From Candidatus Heimdallarchaeota archaeon (GTDB taxonomy: Archaea > Asgardarchaeota > Heimdallarchaeia > Heimdallarchaeales > Heimdallarchaeaceae): a stretch of DNA of 13,326 nt. Shown piece after piece: positions 3,180 to 13,269 of this stretch. The notes under the pieces were generated by a model. That model saw only the letters and a program-made list of their open reading frames with translations. It was not told the DNA's origin and did not search any database. The stretch spans positions 1 to 13,326 of the forward strand of contig JAEOTE010000172.1 in NCBI GenBank assembly GCA_016839945.1, given 5' to 3'. A program made the translations under genes and the position numbers. Every line of letters starts with the position of its first letter. Position 1 is the stretch's first letter.

Positions 3180-3371
3180 ATGACTGTTGATAAGGTAGAA
3201 TCTTTAGTTGATAAAATATCTTTTCTTGAGAAAAAAATTAACAGAATTGAGGAACTATTGCTACTACTCATTGAAGAAGAATATCTTACTGAGGAAGAAA
3301 AACAGCGAATCGAACAAGCAGATGAGCTTATTAAAAATAAGAAATTCAATGAATTAGTTAAGGTGAAATAA
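3180..3371 (+). CDS. Antitoxin of RelBE-type TA pair (archaeal aRelB-like)
   Basis: Small protein (63 aa from ATG 3180; ORF track starts at 3156) with a coiled-coil N-terminus and acidic EEEYLTEEEK segment. Its stop overlaps the toxin start (TAATG). Confidence 0.75.
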   Translation: MTVDKVESLVDKISFLEKKINRIEELLLLLIEEEYLTEEEKQRIEQADELIKNKKFNELVKVK

Positions 3372-3637
3372 TGGTAGAAAAACCTGATTTTGAGGTCTTT
3401 CTCCTACCTATAGCTTCAAAAGAATTAGAAAAGCTACCTAAGAAGGTAAAAACACAAATCAAGGATTTTTTAAAAAATTTAAACAAACCTTTTCTTATCT
3501 CTTCACGAAAACTGAAAGGAGTTGAGAATGCATATAGAGTGAGAATAGGAGATTATAGAGTTTTATATAAGATTTATACTGATGAAAATGTAGTTGTTAT
3601 CATTAAAATAGCACACAGAAAACATGCATACAAATAA
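3371..3637 (+). CDS. relE: Type II toxin, RelE/ParE (RelE/StbE) family mRNA interferase
   Basis: 88 aa, basic; AxKELEKL, KLKG, YRVRIGDYRVLY, IAHRKHAY motifs; AGGTGA SD at 3361-3366. Confidence 0.92.
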   Translation: MVEKPDFEVFLLPIASKELEKLPKKVKTQIKDFLKNLNKPFLISSRKLKGVENAYRVRIGDYRVLYKIYTDENVVVIIKIAHRKHAYK

Positions 3638-4669: not shown

Positions 4670-4996
4670 TTATACTCTTATAACCTCGTCAAGTATTTGT
4701 TTTCCTAGATTTGGTTTAAGTGTTTCCTTCATTACTAAATCTACTTTTATTTCTAGTAGTTCGCTCAAATAGTTTTCCAAGCGAATAATTTGAAATAGAC
4801 TAGGAGTTTCAAAAAATTCAACTAATATATCTATATCACTATATCTTTTTTGTTCATTTCTAACAACTGAACCAAAAATACCTAAATAGTTAACCTTAAA
4901 CTGTTTTTCAATTTCCTTAAAATTTCTTCTTAGAATTTCTAAGTAAATTGCTACCTTATCATTCTCTTCTGATTCAATTGCAGTCATTCTTTTCAT
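4670..4996 (-). CDS. Minimal nucleotidyltransferase (MNT, pol-beta superfamily; MntA-type antitoxin)
   Basis: IFGSVVRNEQKRYSDIDILVEF (GS-x10-DxD) and LSELLEIKVDLV; about 100 aa. Confidence 0.92.
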   Translation of the reverse strand: MKRMTAIESEENDKVAIYLEILRRNFKEIEKQFKVNYLGIFGSVVRNEQKRYSDIDILVEFFETPSLFQIIRLENYLSELLEIKVDLVMKETLKPNLGKQILDEVIRV

Positions 4997-5063: not shown

Positions 5064-7697
5064 TTATTTTCTTGCAATTGGTAATTCAAATCTCCATTTA
5101 CCATCATATTGATAGCAGGCTCCTACAATAGCTCCAGCTGTTGGAACTAATCCTATCTCCCCTACGCCTTTTGATCCAAATCCTAGAATTTCTTCAGGTT
5201 CTTCTATGATAATAACTTCAACCTCAGGAGTTTCTTTAGCTTTAACTATCTGAAGATCCCTCATCTTAAAAGAATCAGGTACCCCCTTTGTTGTTGGAAA
5301 GTTTTCCGAAAGTGTATGTCCTACTCCCATGTGAATTCCACCTTCGATTTGTCCAGCTACTGCCATTGGATTGATTGCTTTTCCTACATCATGAGCTGCA
5401 ATAATTTTCTTAAGATTACCATCTTTATCCAAGAAAGCAACTTGAACAGCATAACTAAATGCTAGATGAGTAACTGGATTGTCAACTTGAATTCCTGGTT
5501 TGACAGTAAAGTTGGTTACAAACTCTCCATGAAACTCTTCACCTGCAAGTTCTTTGAGTGATTTTGTTTGCAAAGCAGAAGCAAGTTTTTCAGCTGCATA
5601 TTTTGCAGCCATTGAATCAAGTGCTGTTCCTCTAGATGCAGTAGTCATTCCACATTTAGTATTAGGATAGCTGATTGATTTAACACTCATCTGTGAAGGA
5701 GGAATGTTAGTCAGTTCTGTAACAACTTGAGTTAGTACAGTAAACAATCCTTGACCCATTTCAGTGAAACCAGTTAAGATTTCAATTTGTTCATCATCTA
5801 GTACTTTGATGAGTACTCTCCCAGTATCTTCGAGAGCATTACCTATCCCAGTATTCTTAATCCCACAAGCTATACCTGTTGGTACTTCCGAATTTTTGTA
5901 AACTCCCTTAACAGCATCAAGACATTTTTGTAAACCAACAACAGTTTTAGTCATCTTTTGTCCAGTGGCAAATCTTTGACCTTCTCTGAGAATATTTATT
6001 TCTCTAATGTCATAATCATCAATCTCGATTCCATCATCTCTCATCTTTGCAGCAATCAAATTCAAACAAGTCTCAATAGCAAAGGCAGTTTGGTTAACAC
6101 CGAATCCACGCATTGCACCACATGGAGGATTGTTTGTGTGCACAGCTTTTGCATCAATGTCAACATTTGGAACATAATAAGGACCGCATGAATGACCTGC
6201 AGCTCTTTCAACCACTTGAGCACCTACTGATGCATATGCACCAGTATCAGCTATGAGTCTAAGTTTAACTGCAGTTAACTTTCCATTTTCATCAGCACCT
6301 ACTTCATAATCCATTGTCATTGGATGACGTTTTGGATGTAACCTCATTGATTGTTCTCTAGTGAGTACAGTCTTGACTGGTTTTTTCAACAGAAAAGATG
6401 CTATAGCTGTTTGAGCTTGACATGAGAGATCCTCTTTACCACCAAAAGCACCTCCATTAGTCACTAGCTCAACAATAACATCTTCCTTATCTAACCCAAG
6501 TACTTCAGCAATCTGTCTTTGATCTTCATGAACACCTTGTCCTTGACTGTATACATGTATACCCCCTTCAGTTGAAATTGCTAGACAACTTTCGACTTCC
6601 ATGAAGGCATGTTCAATTCTTTGAGTCTTGAATTGTTGTTTGATAACATACTTGGAATTTTCTAAAGCTTGGTTGACTTCACCTCTTGTGAAAAATGTGT
6701 GACCTAGTAGGTTTCCTTTATCATGAACTTTTTCTGCATTAGGTAACAAAGCTTTTTCAGGATCATCAATTGGTTCAAGTATTTCATATTTGATTTCAAT
6801 TTTGTCAAGAGCTGCTCGAGCATGAATCATTGAATCAGCTACGACCATTGCTAGAATATCACCAATGTATCTAGTGATTTCTCCTTCGGCAACAAAAACA
6901 GGCCAATCAGAAAAAATGTGTCCAATGAATCTTTTTCCAGGAACATCTTCAGCTGTAAATATTCTTACAACACCACTAGCTGATTCTACTTTTGTTGTAT
7001 CTATCTTAATTACTTTAGCTCTTGGATGTTCACTTAACAATAAAGCTCCATGAAGCAAACCCTCTACTTCCATGTCTGCAATGAAAGGTTTCTTTCCAAG
7101 TGCCATGTCAATTCCTCTGTAGCGATGAGTACTATCACCAACCCCTTTTTCTTTTGGAGTGTATTCTCTTTTCATACCATACTTCTCACCAAAGAAATCA
7201 GCTCTTCGGGGATGACTCAAAATAACAGTGTCTTTCTTTTGCCAATGTTCTTCAGCTGTTTCCATTGCATCGAGGATTCTTTGATAACCAGTACAACGAC
7301 AAAGATTACTTGAAATTGCTTTGGCCTTCTCTTCTCTTGTAGAAGAGGGATGTGTATCAAGAAATCCTTTGATGCGAAGCATTAAACCTGGCGTGCAGTA
7401 GCCACATTGAATCGCCCCTTCCTTAACAAGGGATTTGGAAAGAATATCTTTTTCAGTTTCACTTAGACCTTCAATGGTTGTAACTTCTTTACCCTCAACA
7501 AAAGCTGGATCTCTTCTACATGACATCATAGGTTTATTATCGATAAGTACAGTACATGCTCCACAAAATCCTTGACCTGAACAACCATCTTTGCAGCTTT
7601 TAATTAAACAAACTTCTCTTAGCACATCTAGAAGACTCATACCTTCTTCGTACTCTGCTGTTATCTCTTTTCCATTAAGAGTAAATGTTACATCCAT
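5064..7697 (-). CDS. xdh: Molybdenum hydroxylase, selenium-dependent xanthine dehydrogenase type (2x[2Fe-2S] fused to Moco-binding subunit, no FAD domain)
   Basis: N-terminal KDGCSGQGFCGACTV and QCGYCTPG...NLCRCTGY. Moco motifs EHAFME, GGAFGGKED, HPKRH, ADTGAYAS, AMRGFG, EMGQG, TTASR, GQIEGG and catalytic KGVGE. GHIFSDWP and NPVTH segments recall the clostridial/enterococcal Se-dependent XDH family (TIGR03311). Start placed at ATG 7697 because of the AGGTGA SD at 7707-7702 (ORF track: 7721). Confidence 0.9.
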   Translation of the reverse strand: MDVTFTLNGKEITAEYEEGMSLLDVLREVCLIKSCKDGCSGQGFCGACTVLIDNKPMMSCRRDPAFVEGKEVTTIEGLSETEKDILSKSLVKEGAIQCGYCTPGLMLRIKGFLDTHPSSTREEKAKAISSNLCRCTGYQRILDAMETAEEHWQKKDTVILSHPRRADFFGEKYGMKREYTPKEKGVGDSTHRYRGIDMALGKKPFIADMEVEGLLHGALLLSEHPRAKVIKIDTTKVESASGVVRIFTAEDVPGKRFIGHIFSDWPVFVAEGEITRYIGDILAMVVADSMIHARAALDKIEIKYEILEPIDDPEKALLPNAEKVHDKGNLLGHTFFTRGEVNQALENSKYVIKQQFKTQRIEHAFMEVESCLAISTEGGIHVYSQGQGVHEDQRQIAEVLGLDKEDVIVELVTNGGAFGGKEDLSCQAQTAIASFLLKKPVKTVLTREQSMRLHPKRHPMTMDYEVGADENGKLTAVKLRLIADTGAYASVGAQVVERAAGHSCGPYYVPNVDIDAKAVHTNNPPCGAMRGFGVNQTAFAIETCLNLIAAKMRDDGIEIDDYDIREINILREGQRFATGQKMTKTVVGLQKCLDAVKGVYKNSEVPTGIACGIKNTGIGNALEDTGRVLIKVLDDEQIEILTGFTEMGQGLFTVLTQVVTELTNIPPSQMSVKSISYPNTKCGMTTASRGTALDSMAAKYAAEKLASALQTKSLKELAGEEFHGEFVTNFTVKPGIQVDNPVTHLAFSYAVQVAFLDKDGNLKKIIAAHDVGKAINPMAVAGQIEGGIHMGVGHTLSENFPTTKGVPDSFKMRDLQIVKAKETPEVEVIIIEEPEEILGFGSKGVGEIGLVPTAGAIVGACYQYDGKWRFELPIARK

Positions 7698-8308
7698 TGT
7701 TTCACCTTGAAAGCTTCCCAATCTTCAGGAGTGTTGAGATTAAGTGTTATGTTATTGTCGTTAACAGATATAATTCTTGCTTTTCCTTGTTCTATCTTCT
7801 TATGTATCTCATGATCAAGACGAGTATTCAAGTCACATGATAAGAGATAATTCTTGAATTTTTCTGATAATAACACTGGATGTCCCTTTTTACCTTGAAA
7901 CTGTGGTATCAATACACTAGCTTCAAATAAATTTAGATTAAATGCTAGTTGTTTCCAGACTTCTTTAATTGGACATGGAACATCAAGAGGGAGTATAAAT
8001 ACTCCAGATTTGTGAGATTCTAATAATTTATGCAATCCATATTTTATTGAAGAAAATTGTCCTTTTGCAGGATCTGGATTTAATGCTACTTTGCATTTAC
8101 TAAGTTCAGGAATCTTCTCTAGATAAAGATCATTATCCTTTCCAAGAACAACAATAATTTTTGAAAAACCGATTTCTATTAAGCATTCAATTTGACGTGA
8201 AAAGAAAGGTTTACCATAATATTCCAGTAAACCTTTGGGCGTACCCATTCGTTTAGAATCTCCAGCTGCTAGAATAATAACAGATATCATTTTGAAATCA
8301 GATTTCAT
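7688..8308 (-). CDS. mocA: Molybdenum cofactor cytidylyltransferase (MocA/YgfJ-like, NTP_transf_3)
   Basis: IILAAGDSKRMGTPK, GQFSSIK, LPLDVP, GHPVL, NLNTPED; overlaps the xdh start by 10 nt. Alternative start at 8290. Confidence 0.85.
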   Translation of the reverse strand: MKSDFKMISVIILAAGDSKRMGTPKGLLEYYGKPFFSRQIECLIEIGFSKIIVVLGKDNDLYLEKIPELSKCKVALNPDPAKGQFSSIKYGLHKLLESHKSGVFILPLDVPCPIKEVWKQLAFNLNLFEASVLIPQFQGKKGHPVLLSEKFKNYLLSCDLNTRLDHEIHKKIEQGKARIISVNDNNITLNLNTPEDWEAFKVKQWM

Positions 8309-8324
8309 AAGTAAAACCTTTAGC

Positions 8325-9410
8325 TCACATCAATTCAGTAAGATTAATGTTTCTTGCTTTTGCTTTTTGTTCAACCCAATCTTTTCGTGTAGCAGGATAT
8401 TTTTCAAACTGATCTGTTTTTCTTTTTGCTAGTTGAAGAGCATCTTCTGGACAAACTAATGCACATACACCACACCCAACGCATCTTTCGTTTACGTTGC
8501 AGATTCCATCTATAATTTCTAGAGCTTCGAATTGACACCTATCTAAACATGTTTCACAACCTATGCATGAATCTTCATCGACAGTCATCACATAATTAGC
8601 TTTAGCAAAAGCATGAGGTTTCTCAAACTCTATTAAACCTCTGAGTATACCGCAACAACAAGAACAACAGTTGCATATATAATAGACTGAATCTTGCGTA
8701 TTTCTTGTGGTATGAACTAAACCAGAGTCTTCAGCATGTCGTAATAATCTAAGTGATTCTTCCTTTGTTATAGGTTTAGTATTTTTGTCATTTTGAAAAT
8801 AATTTTCAACAGGTGCAAAAACTAAACATACAGTTTTAGAATAATTACATTCTTCCCCAATTAATCCTTTTTGAACTTTGCAGATACAATCTCTTACTCC
8901 CCAACTTTTTGCACCTTCTATGAATTTTTCAACTTCTTCAAATGGATGGATTTCAATCTCAGTTTTTATGACTTTATTAACTGGAATAACTCGATGTACT
9001 GGGGGTTTTGTTTCCATTAATCCTCCAAACTTAGTTTTTTTGAAATATTCTTCGATTAGCTTAGCGAATTCTTCATCCATTCTAAATAATTGTTCTTCAT
9101 AAATTCCAACAATCCATTCCATAAGTGCATACTTCCTCCCCTCTTCTGAATAATAAGCTGATATTTGTCCTTTTGATTCCATAGTTTCTAAAAGCTCTTC
9201 TACTTCTTTTTTATCTAGATTTAACCTTATAGCAATTTCTTCAGCTGTTTCACCTTTCATTTTTAATTTACTTGCTAAATCTGCTTCTTCTGGAGTAAAG
9301 ATCCATTCGAGAACTCTAAGATGAGTTCCATCTTCCGCCACTGGGAAAGCATTTGGTATTTTATCTAAAACTTCAGCTAGTTTTTCATATGGATTGTCTG
9401 ATTCTGTCAA
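8325..9410 (-). CDS. 4Fe-4S dicluster protein with N-terminal winged-HTH-like region and Cys-rich middle domain
   Basis: TTG start with AGGTGA SD at 9422-9417; TAEEIAIRLNLDKKEVEELLETMESKGQI (wHTH-like); CICK..C..C, GLVHT, ICNCCSCCCG; C-terminal CIGCETCLDRCQ and CVGCGVCALVCP. Confidence 0.88.
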   Translation of the reverse strand: MTESDNPYEKLAEVLDKIPNAFPVAEDGTHLRVLEWIFTPEEADLASKLKMKGETAEEIAIRLNLDKKEVEELLETMESKGQISAYYSEEGRKYALMEWIVGIYEEQLFRMDEEFAKLIEEYFKKTKFGGLMETKPPVHRVIPVNKVIKTEIEIHPFEEVEKFIEGAKSWGVRDCICKVQKGLIGEECNYSKTVCLVFAPVENYFQNDKNTKPITKEESLRLLRHAEDSGLVHTTRNTQDSVYYICNCCSCCCGILRGLIEFEKPHAFAKANYVMTVDEDSCIGCETCLDRCQFEALEIIDGICNVNERCVGCGVCALVCPEDALQLAKRKTDQFEKYPATRKDWVEQKAKARNINLTELM

Positions 9411-10349: not shown

Positions 10350-11129
10350 CTAATTTCGTTTAGATTTTATTTTCTGAAAACAATCTTGGCAATAGACAGG
10401 TTTATCTTTGGTTGGTTTGAAAGGAAGAGTTATTTCTTTATTACAAGTTCTACAAACAGAATTATGCATTCTTTTACTTTCTCTATATGGTCCTTTTCTT
10501 TCTCCAAATCTCTCTACATTTTTATTACTTGTTCTGTCACTTGCTCTAAAAACTCTCTTTGGTCTAATTTGTCTGGAATCTTCTTGTGGTTTTTTAGTCT
10601 CAAAACATTCTCTACAATAAACAGGTTTTACACCAGTTGGTCTGAAAGGTACGGTTGTATCTTTACCACATGAAGCACACATCACTTGATGTTGTTGCTT
10701 TGGTCTAGCTTGACTACTGGATTTTCTAAAACTCCTCTCTCTAGGTTTTTGGTCTTGAAAACATTCTCTGCAAAAAACAGGCTTTACTCCTGTAGGTTTG
10801 AATGGTAAAGTTGTTTCTTTATTACACTTGCTGCAAATTGCTTTATACTGTTGAACTGATCTTGCTTGAGGTCGGCTTCCTGATCTATTATAAGTTCGCT
10901 TACTTGATCCATCCCTTGAACGATAAGGAGGTTTTTTTCTGGAACCAGGTGGAGAACGTCTCCTAGTTTGGTTATCAGCTCTATCTCTTGAACGATTATT
11001 TGGTTTAGCACCTGATTTATATTTGGGTTTATCTCTAGATTTATAACCATCCTTTGATTCTTTCTTACTAACAGTTCTCTTAGTTGGTTTGCTTCTATAA
11101 GAGCTTCTTGTTCCTCGATTTTGTGACAT
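10350..11129 (-). CDS. CxxC-x17-CxxC zinc-ribbon repeat protein (3 copies) with basic low-complexity N-terminus
   Basis: Three repeats CxxC-xKE/DxTxPFxPT-xxKPVx-CxxCF (TIGR04272-type). Start is ATG 11129 or GTG 11138; TTTATATA box at 11195-11188 on minus. Confidence 0.88.
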   Translation of the reverse strand: MSQNRGTRSSYRSKPTKRTVSKKESKDGYKSRDKPKYKSGAKPNNRSRDRADNQTRRRSPPGSRKKPPYRSRDGSSKRTYNRSGSRPQARSVQQYKAICSKCNKETTLPFKPTGVKPVFCRECFQDQKPRERSFRKSSSQARPKQQHQVMCASCGKDTTVPFRPTGVKPVYCRECFETKKPQEDSRQIRPKRVFRASDRTSNKNVERFGERKGPYRESKRMHNSVCRTCNKEITLPFKPTKDKPVYCQDCFQKIKSKRN

Positions 11130-11283
11130 TAATTTCACTTTCTAGTAGCAACGTCTGTTACTTAACCAAGCTCCACCTTCTAGTAACTATATAAATAAGT
11201 CTATTTAAGTGGAATTCGATCGCTGAAAAGTGCTTATAAGTGTATGAGCATATAATTAACTAGTCTCTTTAAGTTGGATAAAC

Positions 11284-13269
11284 ATGAGTAAAGAAAAGAA
11301 ATTTGTCATAATTTTAATGATTATAATACTATTATCCAATAGTTGTATTCTTTTGAATACAGCTGTAACACCTTCACCCTATCATTATTGTGAAAAAAAT
11401 AAAAAACCTTACATAACTTCTTTGACTTTAAGAACTAAAGCAGAATCTGATTTGTATGATTATGCTCTTTATGTGGCTCAATATCTTAATAGAGTTGGAA
11501 TAGAGATAAGAATAAGAACTAACAACATGCATACTTTTCTTGGTCATTTATTAACAACGCATGATTATGATTTGTTCATAGCAAAAAATGAAGATATTCC
11601 AAATTTTAATGAAAGAATTTACTCGAAGAATGGGAATTTTAGTATATTCAACCTAGATATGAGTATCCCATATGTAAACATGAGTCTGCAAGAATATGAC
11701 AAAATTAAGAGTGAATTAAGTTTAATTGAACAACAAAATCATACTCATCGCTATCAAGATTTAATGATGGATAAAATTGTTCCGATGTTACCTCTTTTCA
11801 AACCTACAGCTTATAGATTAACTTGGTCTAATATAATGGGATTTATGAATGGGTGGAGAATAATCGAAAACCTTCCTCATATTCATTGTGATGGTTTACA
11901 TTTGAGTCAGGAATCAACAAATGAACTGAGTTTTCCAGGTTCTTGGATTAATCTTAATCCTCTTCTAGCTAAAGATCAGAATAGTAAAGACTTCTGTTCA
12001 TTATTCATGACAAAATTATTAGAAATCTCACCAGATAGAGAACCATTATTTTCTTCAATGATAACAGACTGGGAAATAGTTGAGCCATCAATGATAAAAT
12101 TTACAATTAGAGATGATGTTTTTTGGGGACCTTCTTTCAACATAACATCTAGAAATGAAGTTTCTGAAGAACTAAATCCCCAAGATATAAATCAACTAAT
12201 GATAGGATTGAAAGGGGAGTATAGTAATGGAATGAATCAAAAAGTAACTGCAAAAGATGTAATTTTCAGCTTACTAGTATATGGAAATTCTTTAGTGAGT
12301 CACAGAAGTTCAGAATTTTCCTGGATATCTAATATTTTTGAATCTCCTACTGATGAGTATACATTTTATTTAGAGATTGATAATGATATAAATACACCAG
12401 AACTAGAACCTAATGGAGAATTTTGGTGGGATTTAGATGTTTTCATTCTACCTGAATTTTTTTTGAATAGTACAGATACAACTATAACTAATACTACTAG
12501 TGGTTTGGGGATGGTAGGTATATATCCTGAAATTCTAAATACCTCAGTATGGCAAAGTTATAGCAAATCAGCTTTTGGTTCAGGAATGTACATGTTAGAT
12601 TATTATGATAACCAAAAAGGAGTTTCAGTATTAGAAGCTAATCCCCATTGGTATAATGTAAGTGTAGTAGATAATTCCTTTCAAACTCTTGAAATAAAAA
12701 AAATAAAAGTGAAGAAATTTGAAGAAGATAAAATATTAACACAGTTTATCAAAGGGAATTTAGACTACATAGATTTAGGAAGAGAATTACCTTTCAATGT
12801 GAAGAGTGCTTTTTCAGATTTTAGATTTAATGCTCATAGATATAATAATGATTCATATGTCTTCTTAGGTTTCAATGTTGGTAGACCTTTCGTAGGAGGA
12901 CGTAATAATTTTAAATTTCTAACTAAACCTGGGAGTGAAGCTTACACTAAAGGTGTAGCTGTTCGAAAAACAATTTGTTATTCTATAGATAGAGATGAAA
13001 TGAACAATAATATCCATAATAATGAATATACAATAGCACATGTTGTAATTTTTCCTTATACTTTATTTCATTATTATGAGGACATCGTAACTTACAAATT
13101 TGATTTATGTGAAGCAGGCGAATGGATTTGGTCAGCTGGTTACCTTTTATGTTGTACTAGTTTGAAAAATTGTCGTAATCCTTATAGTGATAACTGTAAA
13201 ACTAGTTTTTCTATCATAGGATTGATATCTATTCTGTTTTTAAAAAGAAGAAAGAAAATCAGAAAATAG
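11284..13269 (+). CDS. ABC transporter substrate-binding protein, family 5 (OppA/DppA-like), apparently circularly permuted
   Basis: N-terminal hydrophobic signal/TM; family-5 motifs LNPLL, FTIRDDVFW, VTAKDVIFS, FGSGMY, LEANPHWY, LGFN, VRKTICYSIDR; C-terminal hydrophobic stretch plus KRRKKIRK. Confidence 0.85.
   Translation: MSKEKKFVIILMIIILLSNSCILLNTAVTPSPYHYCEKNKKPYITSLTLRTKAESDLYDYALYVAQYLNRVGIEIRIRTNNMHTFLGHLLTTHDYDLFIAKNEDIPNFNERIYSKNGNFSIFNLDMSIPYVNMSLQEYDKIKSELSLIEQQNHTHRYQDLMMDKIVPMLPLFKPTAYRLTWSNIMGFMNGWRIIENLPHIHCDGLHLSQESTNELSFPGSWINLNPLLAKDQNSKDFCSLFMTKLLEISPDREPLFSSMITDWEIVEPSMIKFTIRDDVFWGPSFNITSRNEVSEELNPQDINQLMIGLKGEYSNGMNQKVTAKDVIFSLLVYGNSLVSHRSSEFSWISNIFESPTDEYTFYLEIDNDINTPELEPNGEFWWDLDVFILPEFFLNSTDTTITNTTSGLGMVGIYPEILNTSVWQSYSKSAFGSGMYMLDYYDNQKGVSVLEANPHWYNVSVVDNSFQTLEIKKIKVKKFEEDKILTQFIKGNLDYIDLGRELPFNVKSAFSDFRFNAHRYNNDSYVFLGFNVGRPFVGGRNNFKFLTKPGSEAYTKGVAVRKTICYSIDRDEMNNNIHNNEYTIAHVVIFPYTLFHYYEDIVTYKFDLCEAGEWIWSAGYLLCCTSLKNCRNPYSDNCKTSFSIIGLISILFLKRRKKIRK

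Follow-up and report, generated by a model that had tools for sequence, protein, structure and literature searches.

Background

The canonical cluster-C solute-binding proteins (family 5), among them DppA (1dpe/1dpp) and OppA of Escherichia coli, AppA of Bacillus subtilis (1xoc), NikA/NikZ, and MoaA, have a three-domain, two-lobe fold. Substrate-binding proteins have a textbook fold and are a favourite biosensor scaffold, and engineers have permuted them artificially. A natural change of chain topology in this superfamily, a 'domain dislocation' between periplasmic binding proteins of types I and II, is said to have been described by Fukami-Kobayashi et al. in 1999. Here, we describe a gene of Candidatus Heimdallarchaeota archaeon located at positions 11284-13269 (+) of the contig JAEOTE010000172.1, the whole 13,326 bp of which were analysed and are hereafter called the window. 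The product of this gene, P0001, is a family-5 solute-binding protein with a circularly permuted chain. Full-text literature searches did not turn up any naturally occurring circular permutation in the OppA/DppA class, and the permuted form appears not to have been described before.

The window has a G+C content of about 31% and is part of a 3.0-Mb, 88%-complete metagenome-assembled genome (MAG). The Heimdallarchaeum lineage stands close to the origin of eukaryotes and consists of organisms that live on peptides. In cultured Asgard archaea, family-5 binding proteins are the dominant N-glycosylated surface proteins (PMC11284389; bioRxiv 10.1101/2025.02.26.640444), and abundant examples are DSAG12_03090 of P. 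syntrophicum (PMC11284389) and those of Hodarchaeales strains (bioRxiv 10.1101/2025.02.26.640444). The papers on these cultured archaea do not comment on the chain order of their family-5 proteins.

A circularly permuted OppA/DppA-type protein

The open reading frame (ORF) of P0001 encodes 661 residues without interruption. The protein belongs to the SBP_bac_5 family, as the Pfam profile PF00496 matched it with 78.6 bits (cut-off 32.4, E = 6.5e-22). This match placed profile positions 29-278 (of 368) on residues 313-620, and the final 90 positions of the profile found no counterpart at the C-terminal end. Meanwhile, residues 47-100 weakly matched profile positions 291-344 when the N-terminal piece was searched alone. 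The segments of P0001 are thus not collinear with the profile, unlike those of two controls, the canonical protein C65 of the same genome and P0316.

We built a profile from an alignment of 34 homologs (A1) and searched it against solved structures, where it matched OppA/DppA-type chains in swapped order. On DppA/HbpA of Helicobacter pylori (6ofq), profile positions 216-275 fell on chain positions 43-103, profile positions 538-623 on 295-379, and profile positions 46-181 on 383-518. The junction is clean: the two matches meet at chain residues 379 and 383. A profile of the N-terminal piece (A3, 41 sequences) matched 16 solved cluster-C chains, all of them within the C-terminal third, the top match being residues 360-503 (of 520) of AppA (E = 3.7e-11). 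Likewise, the hidden Markov model (HMM) of this piece matched residues ~400-555 of canonical-order relatives with 57-121 bits. The cut corresponds approximately to residue 340 of DppA, and no segment has been lost or duplicated. Collectively, these matches confirm the circular permutation, with a swapped order that chance is far from explaining. This comparison required a family profile, since a single-sequence phmmer search against the solved structures returned chance matches only (filamin, S3a, E > 0.1). A match of residues 40-145 to MCEL_GT_NTPase (16.5-18.6 bits, cut-off 27) was discarded as chance; the same residues strongly match SBP_bac_5 relatives, both by profile and by fold.

These results bear out a preliminary description of the window, made from its letters alone, which had deduced the permutation from the order of a few motifs. 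All of them were found where quoted, namely LTLRT at residues 47-51 (nucleotide 11422), NIMG at 183-186, LNPLL at 224-228 (nucleotide 11953), VTAKDVIFS at 321-329 (nucleotide 12244), and YKFDLCEAGEWIWSAGY at 604-620 (nucleotides 13093-13143). The clean cut that it had placed in a loop of domain III is supported and lies inside lobe 2 (domain III). As it had also proposed, residues 44-185 do match the C-terminal third of the family, and the two PF00496 matches, one strong and one weak, come in swapped order instead of forming one collinear full-length alignment.

Predicted structure

The AlphaFold2 (AF2) model of P0001 reached a mean predicted local distance difference test score (pLDDT) of 85.7 and a predicted template modelling score (pTM) of 0.81, with conservation and confident modelling in both lobes and the hinge. 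In sequential alignments with VIA-align, model residues 213-620 fell on residues 1-340 of DppA (1dpe) with a Z of 20.9 and a root-mean-square deviation of 2.7 Å over 317 residues. Approximately 50 cluster-C entries aligned to the same part of the model (Z 19-22), always over their first two thirds only. The N-terminal piece (residues 40-183), folded alone with a pLDDT of 77.5, aligned to residues 340-474 of DppA, 353-483 of OppA, and 349-486 of AppA (Z 7.1-7.8), and 49 of the 50 entries listed for it were solute-binding (SBP/PBP-type) structures aligned over their C-terminal parts. The Z values of this piece are middling, and the weight of the comparison lies in the exactly complementary ranges of the two pieces. 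Foldseek TM-scores were 0.3-0.5, low as expected for a permuted, hinged protein, and the VIA-align ranges were used instead. P0001 is therefore predicted to adopt the two-lobe, three-domain OppA/DppA fold. The cut at about residue 340 would fall inside domain III of DppA, which we take to span approximately residues 263-478.

Architecture of the permuted chain

The chain starts in the middle of lobe 2 (domain III), passes the old C-terminus, crosses a new linker of about 30 residues to the old N-terminus, then runs on across domains I and II, and stops within the first half of domain III, just past the '..AGY' helix. The equivalent of the canonical C-terminal third (second half of domain III and closing strands) occupies residues 44-185 (11413..11838, +), as placed by profile and fold. 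The linker, residues 186-214 (11839..11925, +), is conserved in A1, displays the family motif WG..DSLPYM.YDG.HEGQ, and has a short helix at 193-199 in the AF2 model; it has no counterpart in the solved chains, either in family-profile or in structural alignments. Residues 215-620 (11926..13143, +) correspond to the canonical first two thirds (domains I, II, and first half of III), as indicated by Pfam, the AF2 model, and 6ofq. Within this part lies an insert, residues 282-320 (12127..12243, +), between '..DDVFW' and 'VTAKDV'. The insert of ~40 residues noticed earlier at this point is real, as seen in the paralog alignment, though specific (~35-40 residues) to one sub-clade: it occurs in the paralogs on contigs C14, C97, C168 (the window), and C115, and is absent from that on C39 and from clade B, defined below. 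Matches from family f6 bridge it as a gap, and it is confidently modelled as irregular structure.

Both ends of the protein carry hydrophobic segments. Residues 1-27 (11284..11364, +) consist of MSKEKK, an 18-residue hydrophobic core, and a polar stretch, with a hydropathy peak at residues 3-14 (15-residue windows) and disorder at residues 20-39 in the AF2 model. This is the n-region/h-region/polar layout of a Sec signal peptide, and it is found in all family members; no lipobox precedes Cys21 in the P0001 sequence. At the other end, a Cys-rich stalk with four Cys, residues 621-641 (13144..13206, +; pLDDT < 50), is followed by a short hydrophobic anchor and the basic tail KRRKKIRK, residues 642-661 (13207..13266, +). 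Most relatives are Ser/Thr-rich in the stalk and have an anchor of ~20 residues before the R/K tail. The layout of archaeal C-terminally anchored surface proteins (signal, C-terminal hydrophobic helix, R/K) can be read in the P0001 sequence, but with an anchor of only 12-14 residues; canonical-order relatives share both signal and anchor. We infer that the signal is cleavable and that the C-terminal anchor is the tether, hence the double anchoring suggested in the preliminary description is not supported. The tether would leave from lobe 2 in the permuted protein, versus lobe 1 in canonical archaeal relatives. Some members of the family (P0027, P0043, P0054, P0077, P0089, P0108, and P0120) have an extra domain of ~100 residues between the binding domain and the anchor (A1 columns ~700-800).

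In DppA, Asp408 pairs with the alpha-amino group of the peptide (PMC3295651). In the aligned region, 6ofq reads 'GWMADIADPD' (its anchoring Asp being placed by inference), the clade consensus 'LSGGGASPD', and P0001 'IAK---NEDIPN'. By this alignment-only mapping, the clade consensus has Gly at the position of the amine-anchoring Asp, P0001 has a deletion or a change there, and clade B paralogs retain 'GWSWD' in the same region. Because the Asp-aligned position is not conserved in the sub-clade of P0001, a classical di/oligopeptide binding mode is doubtful for this protein.

A lineage-specific family with many members

P0001 has 156 homologs with 35-42% identity that cover 87-100% of its length, all of them named Heimdallarchaeota or Heimdallarchaeaceae. 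The HMM of the N-terminal piece precedes that of the C-terminal piece in 77 out of 77 related loci from species-representative genomes, and hundreds of relatives in several Heimdallarchaeia families have the permuted order. In its own genome, HMM order tests classified 12 of the 13 family-5 genes as permuted. Ten of these are full-length and collinear with each other end to end, and they form two clades with ~17% identity between them: clade A, on contigs C14, C97, C168, C115, and C39, and clade B, on C82, C73, C55, C34, and C75. The two others are a paralog cut by the end of contig C107 and a single-lobe remnant on C76. C65 is the sole canonical family-5 gene of this genome, and it alone lies in a binding protein-permease-permease-ATPase-ATPase operon. 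P0001 was formerly called an orphan; with hundreds of members and ~12 paralogs in its own genome, it is not a lone protein.

Two closed Heimdallarchaeum genomes extend this observation. None of their PF00496 matches goes past profile position ~300, and pieces matching positions 289-359 lie upstream in the same reading frames; hence, the whole family-5 complement of these genomes is permuted (7 and 11 intact genes). One of them also holds a permuted family-5 gene in three pieces (G026:C1:2488359-2490125), the middle of which (profile 175-366) is on the opposite strand, in what looks like an internal inversion.

We surveyed 301 genomes of the phylum with the clade-A profile. It matched 28 of 28 genomes of the window's family, including all 22 sampled genomes of the same genus, the single genome of another family of the same order (1/1), and 11 of 11 from a family of another order in the class; it had no match in the other 27 families among the genomes searched. 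More divergent permuted forms occur in two further families. These data support a lineage-specific family, as the early reading of the sequence had it, found only in Heimdallarchaeia families plus tandem forms named Thorarchaeota and Promethearchaeota.

Permuted paralogs often stand head-to-tail, as in loci L076 (five in a row), L060, L045, L022, and L023. In the genome of P0001, they lie at the ends of contigs C14, C115, C107, C55, and C168, and this frequent position suggests assembly breaks caused by these genes.

Origin of the permuted order

A profile of both clades was searched against 1.84 billion representative proteins. Its 150 best matches included 18 canonical-order proteins (270-355 bits), four kinds of tandem double (1,217-1,772 residues), and short single-lobe forms. 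The canonical-order proteins are collinear in 9 of 11 genomes of a sister family; in the window's family, this query matches in separate parts, the C-terminal one lying upstream. In these close relatives, an unbroken '..AGF - ~20-aa loop - F.V.VLSPNTNPARNQW..' can be read, in which '..AGF' and 'F.V.VLSPNTNPARNQW..' are the exact end and start of the permuted clade B paralogs.

The tandem doubles are P0317 (1695 residues), P0373 (1772), P0319/P0387 (~1230), P0326/P0388 (~1530), and L129. By Pfam, P0319 has a complete canonical unit in mid-chain, flanked by partial units. The names Thorarchaeota, Promethearchaeota, and Heimdallarchaeota each go with one tandem protein, and such doubles survive in heimdall-, thor-, and prometheoarchaeal MAGs. 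They are candidates for intermediates of the permutation. The origin of the permuted order was most likely an in-frame fusion of two tandem copies, after which the outer ends were lost; tandem doubles and close canonical-order relatives persist to this day.

A third order occurs in L132:412-2337 (+), from a Heimdallarchaeia family with large genomes. This single unit consists of the end of the old N-terminal part, the old C-terminal third, and domains I and II, with Pfam positions 3-214 at residues 364-600 of 642. Genome G208 has many paralogs with Pfam positions 3-214 only. The coexisting orders are therefore the canonical one, the mid-domain III cut of P0001, and the near-hinge cut of L132, in which lobe 2 precedes lobe 1. 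In the single-lobe protein C76 (G000:C76:15652-16875 (-), locus L008:784-2004), the old C-terminal third is directly followed by the last ~100 residues of the old N-terminal part (Pfam 207-286), so that only lobe 2 is left, with ~140 further residues and an anchor behind it. P0339/P0389 (306 residues) are single-lobe as well.

For a maximum-likelihood tree, the two pieces were joined in canonical order and nine canonical outgroups were added; a quick LG+G4 search was used, and the outgroup branches were long. In this tree, the permuted radiation encloses a canonical-order, operon-linked clade (27 rows, support 99). A permuted order that arose once and never reversed was rejected: constraining all canonical-order rows to one side of a branch, a group named after the tree had been seen, cost 121 log-likelihood units (approximately unbiased test, p 0.003). 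In our reading, the chain order changed at least twice, and the nested clade suggests either a reversion to the canonical order or repeated permutations at the same loop. We tentatively propose that in Heimdallarchaeia the OppA/DppA fold changed its circular 'phase' repeatedly through tandem-fusion intermediates, yielding at least three orders, and that permuted proteins may have become the only family-5 receptors in Heimdallarchaeum, with Dpp-type transporters still being fed by them.

Transporters and genomic context

Dpp/Opp-type importers require a family-5 receptor. The genome of P0001 has two operons of this type with no binding-protein gene. One, on C133, encodes permeases of 335 and 358 residues, a 260-residue protein, and two ATPases; the other, on C62, encodes permeases of 586 and 408 residues and then two ATPases. 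Both permease pairs recur in the closed genomes, where permuted proteins are the only family-5 proteins. Because these importers need such a receptor, and the closed genomes hold permuted ones only, the permuted proteins may well serve the binding-protein-less Dpp-type transporters in trans. Service of one transporter by unlinked paralogs was demonstrated experimentally for DppA1-A5 of Pseudomonas aeruginosa (PMC4206461). Linked genes are seen in locus L075, where genes for a DppB-like permease, a DppC-like permease (OppC_N), and a 259-residue protein immediately precede a permuted gene in an operon of the C133 type. The 260-residue gene between permeases and ATPases has no Pfam match in either C133 or L075.

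Two apparent transporter genes near related loci were rejected. A 'permease' beside the clade B paralog on C82, suggested by a phmmer screen, is a false positive, being a LVIVD-repeat/zinc-ribbon protein. Upstream of four related loci, a motif screen detected an 'ABC ATPase' in a giant ORF; the product is a doubled UvrA, which has no relation to transport. This protein of 1,921 residues, two sets of UvrA domains in one ORF, is encoded directly upstream of the permuted gene at L070:4149-9914, L073:73-5961, L081:4048-9804, and L090:3978-9737.

Function of the permuted proteins

Based on these findings, we postulate that P0001 is a permuted receptor of the OppA/DppA fold that is probably secreted, tethered at its C-terminus, and engaged in feeding a Dpp/Opp-type transporter encoded elsewhere. 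It would be exported by its N-terminal Sec signal and held at the cell surface by the C-terminal hydrophobic anchor and basic tail. As a Venus-flytrap receptor, it would capture a solute and deliver it to that transporter of the ATP-binding cassette (ABC) type, by a docking that is hypothetical. Several observations weigh against this reading. P0001 is not adjacent to DppBC/OppBC permease and ATPase genes: as noticed early on, neither is encoded in the 11 kb upstream within the window, and the contig ends 57 nt past the stop, leaving the downstream side unseen. Permeases lie within 10 kb of only 1 of the 77 related loci (L075) and near none of the other 76, and none lies within 10 kb of any of the 18 intact family-5 copies of the closed genomes. 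Moreover, P0001 is the most divergent of the 34 clade-A members, retaining 96 of the 127 positions that are at least 90% conserved in the clade (76%, versus at least 87% in the others); it lacks the GGG motif and a conserved Cys of the clade, and its anchor has only 12-14 residues.

The near-complete loss of linkage to permease genes could mean that the permuted proteins left transport and became free-standing surface receptors, be it as scavengers or retainers, adhesins, a glycoprotein coat, or sensors that do not work with ABC permeases. Large paralog arrays, up to five in a row, would fit this explanation, as would single-lobe derivatives unable to close on a ligand (C76, P0339), the extra stalk domains of ~100 residues in some members, and the finding that, among the glycoproteins of an Asgard archaeon devoid of an S-layer, a family-5 binding protein is the most abundant one (PMC11284389). 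We nevertheless consider a general departure from transport unlikely, for complete Dpp/Opp-type transporters persist in the same genomes, where no other family-5 binding protein is there to serve them, one permuted gene sits inside such an operon, both lobes and the hinge are preserved, and multiple unlinked binding proteins per transporter are well known. A scavenger role independent of transporters is possible, and less likely than service in trans. The divergence of P0001 itself could instead reflect a functional family in which this copy, together with its closest relative, the C107 paralog (61% identical), is drifting under relaxed selection or acquiring a new specificity. Besides the low retention of conserved positions and the short anchor, this is what its long end branch (0.87, versus a median of 0.49) might indicate, along with a best homolog outside its own genome of only 42% identity, though all 22 sampled genomes of the genus carry the family, and a Cys-rich stalk common only to P0001 and C107. 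Yet the frame of 661 codons is intact, the fold is predicted with good confidence, and the unusual stalk is kept in C107 as well, an argument that this sub-branch is under selection; drift or a new specificity seems improbable to us. Finally, mis-assembly or read-through of two adjacent partial genes might have produced the swapped order, as paralogs at contig ends indicate that repeats break the assembly. The same order across independent MAGs (77 loci) and two closed genomes, the conserved junction linker, and the uninterrupted reading frames make the probability of such an artefact close to negligible.

If permuted receptors do feed Dpp-type transporters, as we favour, the docking of ABC importers tolerates re-threading and re-tethering of the receptor. 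Whether a transporter takes receptors with another threading and tethering is a question for ABC transport that can be tested. The permuted form is the rule and not a curiosity: two closed genomes have family-5 proteins in this form only. In addition, the duplication-and-truncation model of circular permutation gains a natural series of unusual completeness from the canonical proteins, the tandem doubles, the two permuted phases, and the single-lobe remnants. In annotation pipelines, these genes receive the ordinary label 'ABC transporter substrate-binding protein'; the rearrangement remains hidden from them because the profile matches span only two thirds of the protein.

Neighbouring genes in the window

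Just upstream of the P0001 gene, and divergent from it, 10350-11138 (-) encodes a protein of 262 residues with three treble-clef zinc fingers (PF23477, E 8e-46). Positions 5064-9410 (-) hold a cluster that encodes a fused xanthine-dehydrogenase-like protein of 885 residues, a MobA-like nucleotidyltransferase, and a TrmB-like/4Fe-4S protein. The xanthine-dehydrogenase-like chain comprises two 2Fe-2S domains, a hammerhead domain, and molybdopterin-binding domains. An amino-acid-kinase gene is flanked by a ParE-family toxin gene at 3371-3637 (+) and a small nucleotidyltransferase gene at 4670-4996 (-), the latter an NTP_transf_2 protein of the kind found in toxin-antitoxin pairs.

Comparison with known systems

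The closest canonical-order relatives of the permuted family are the sister proteins of a neighbouring Heimdallarchaeia family (P0316, P0331; L106, L107, L111), which reach 270-355 bits against its profile and share its signal peptide, Ser/Thr stalk, anchor, and basic tail. Unlike the permuted proteins, they match Pfam positions 2-358 in one collinear stretch, and in 3 of 8 loci they belong to full binding protein-permease-permease-ATPase-ATPase operons. In L106, L107, and L111 (e.g., L107:11110-12672), the binding-protein gene is separated from the permease genes by a conserved gene of ~520 codons that has no match in Pfam.

The canonical cluster-C proteins share their fold with P0001, which differs from them in being permuted at about residue 340 of DppA, in the new linker between the old termini, and in the location of its gene outside an opp/dpp operon. 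Such a location has parallels in the paralogous family-5 proteins DppA1-A5 of P. aeruginosa (PMC4206461) and OppA1-5 of Borrelia (PMC7822543), which are encoded apart from a single DppBCDF/OppBCDF transporter. Those proteins have the canonical order and a demonstrated function in trans; for the permuted Heimdall proteins, the function in trans is the one that we deduce. The glycosylated proteins of cultured, peptide-fermenting Asgard archaea are, like P0001, of the archaeal surface-exposed family-5 type. P0001 is not enriched in N-glycosylation sequons (9, versus 7.6 +/- 2.4 in shuffled sequences). Domain dislocation is likewise a change of chain topology within the binding-protein superfamily; there, it is said to concern the strand order of the lobe cores across ancient classes, whereas the family of P0001 presents a whole-chain circular permutation inside one family, with its intermediates still extant.

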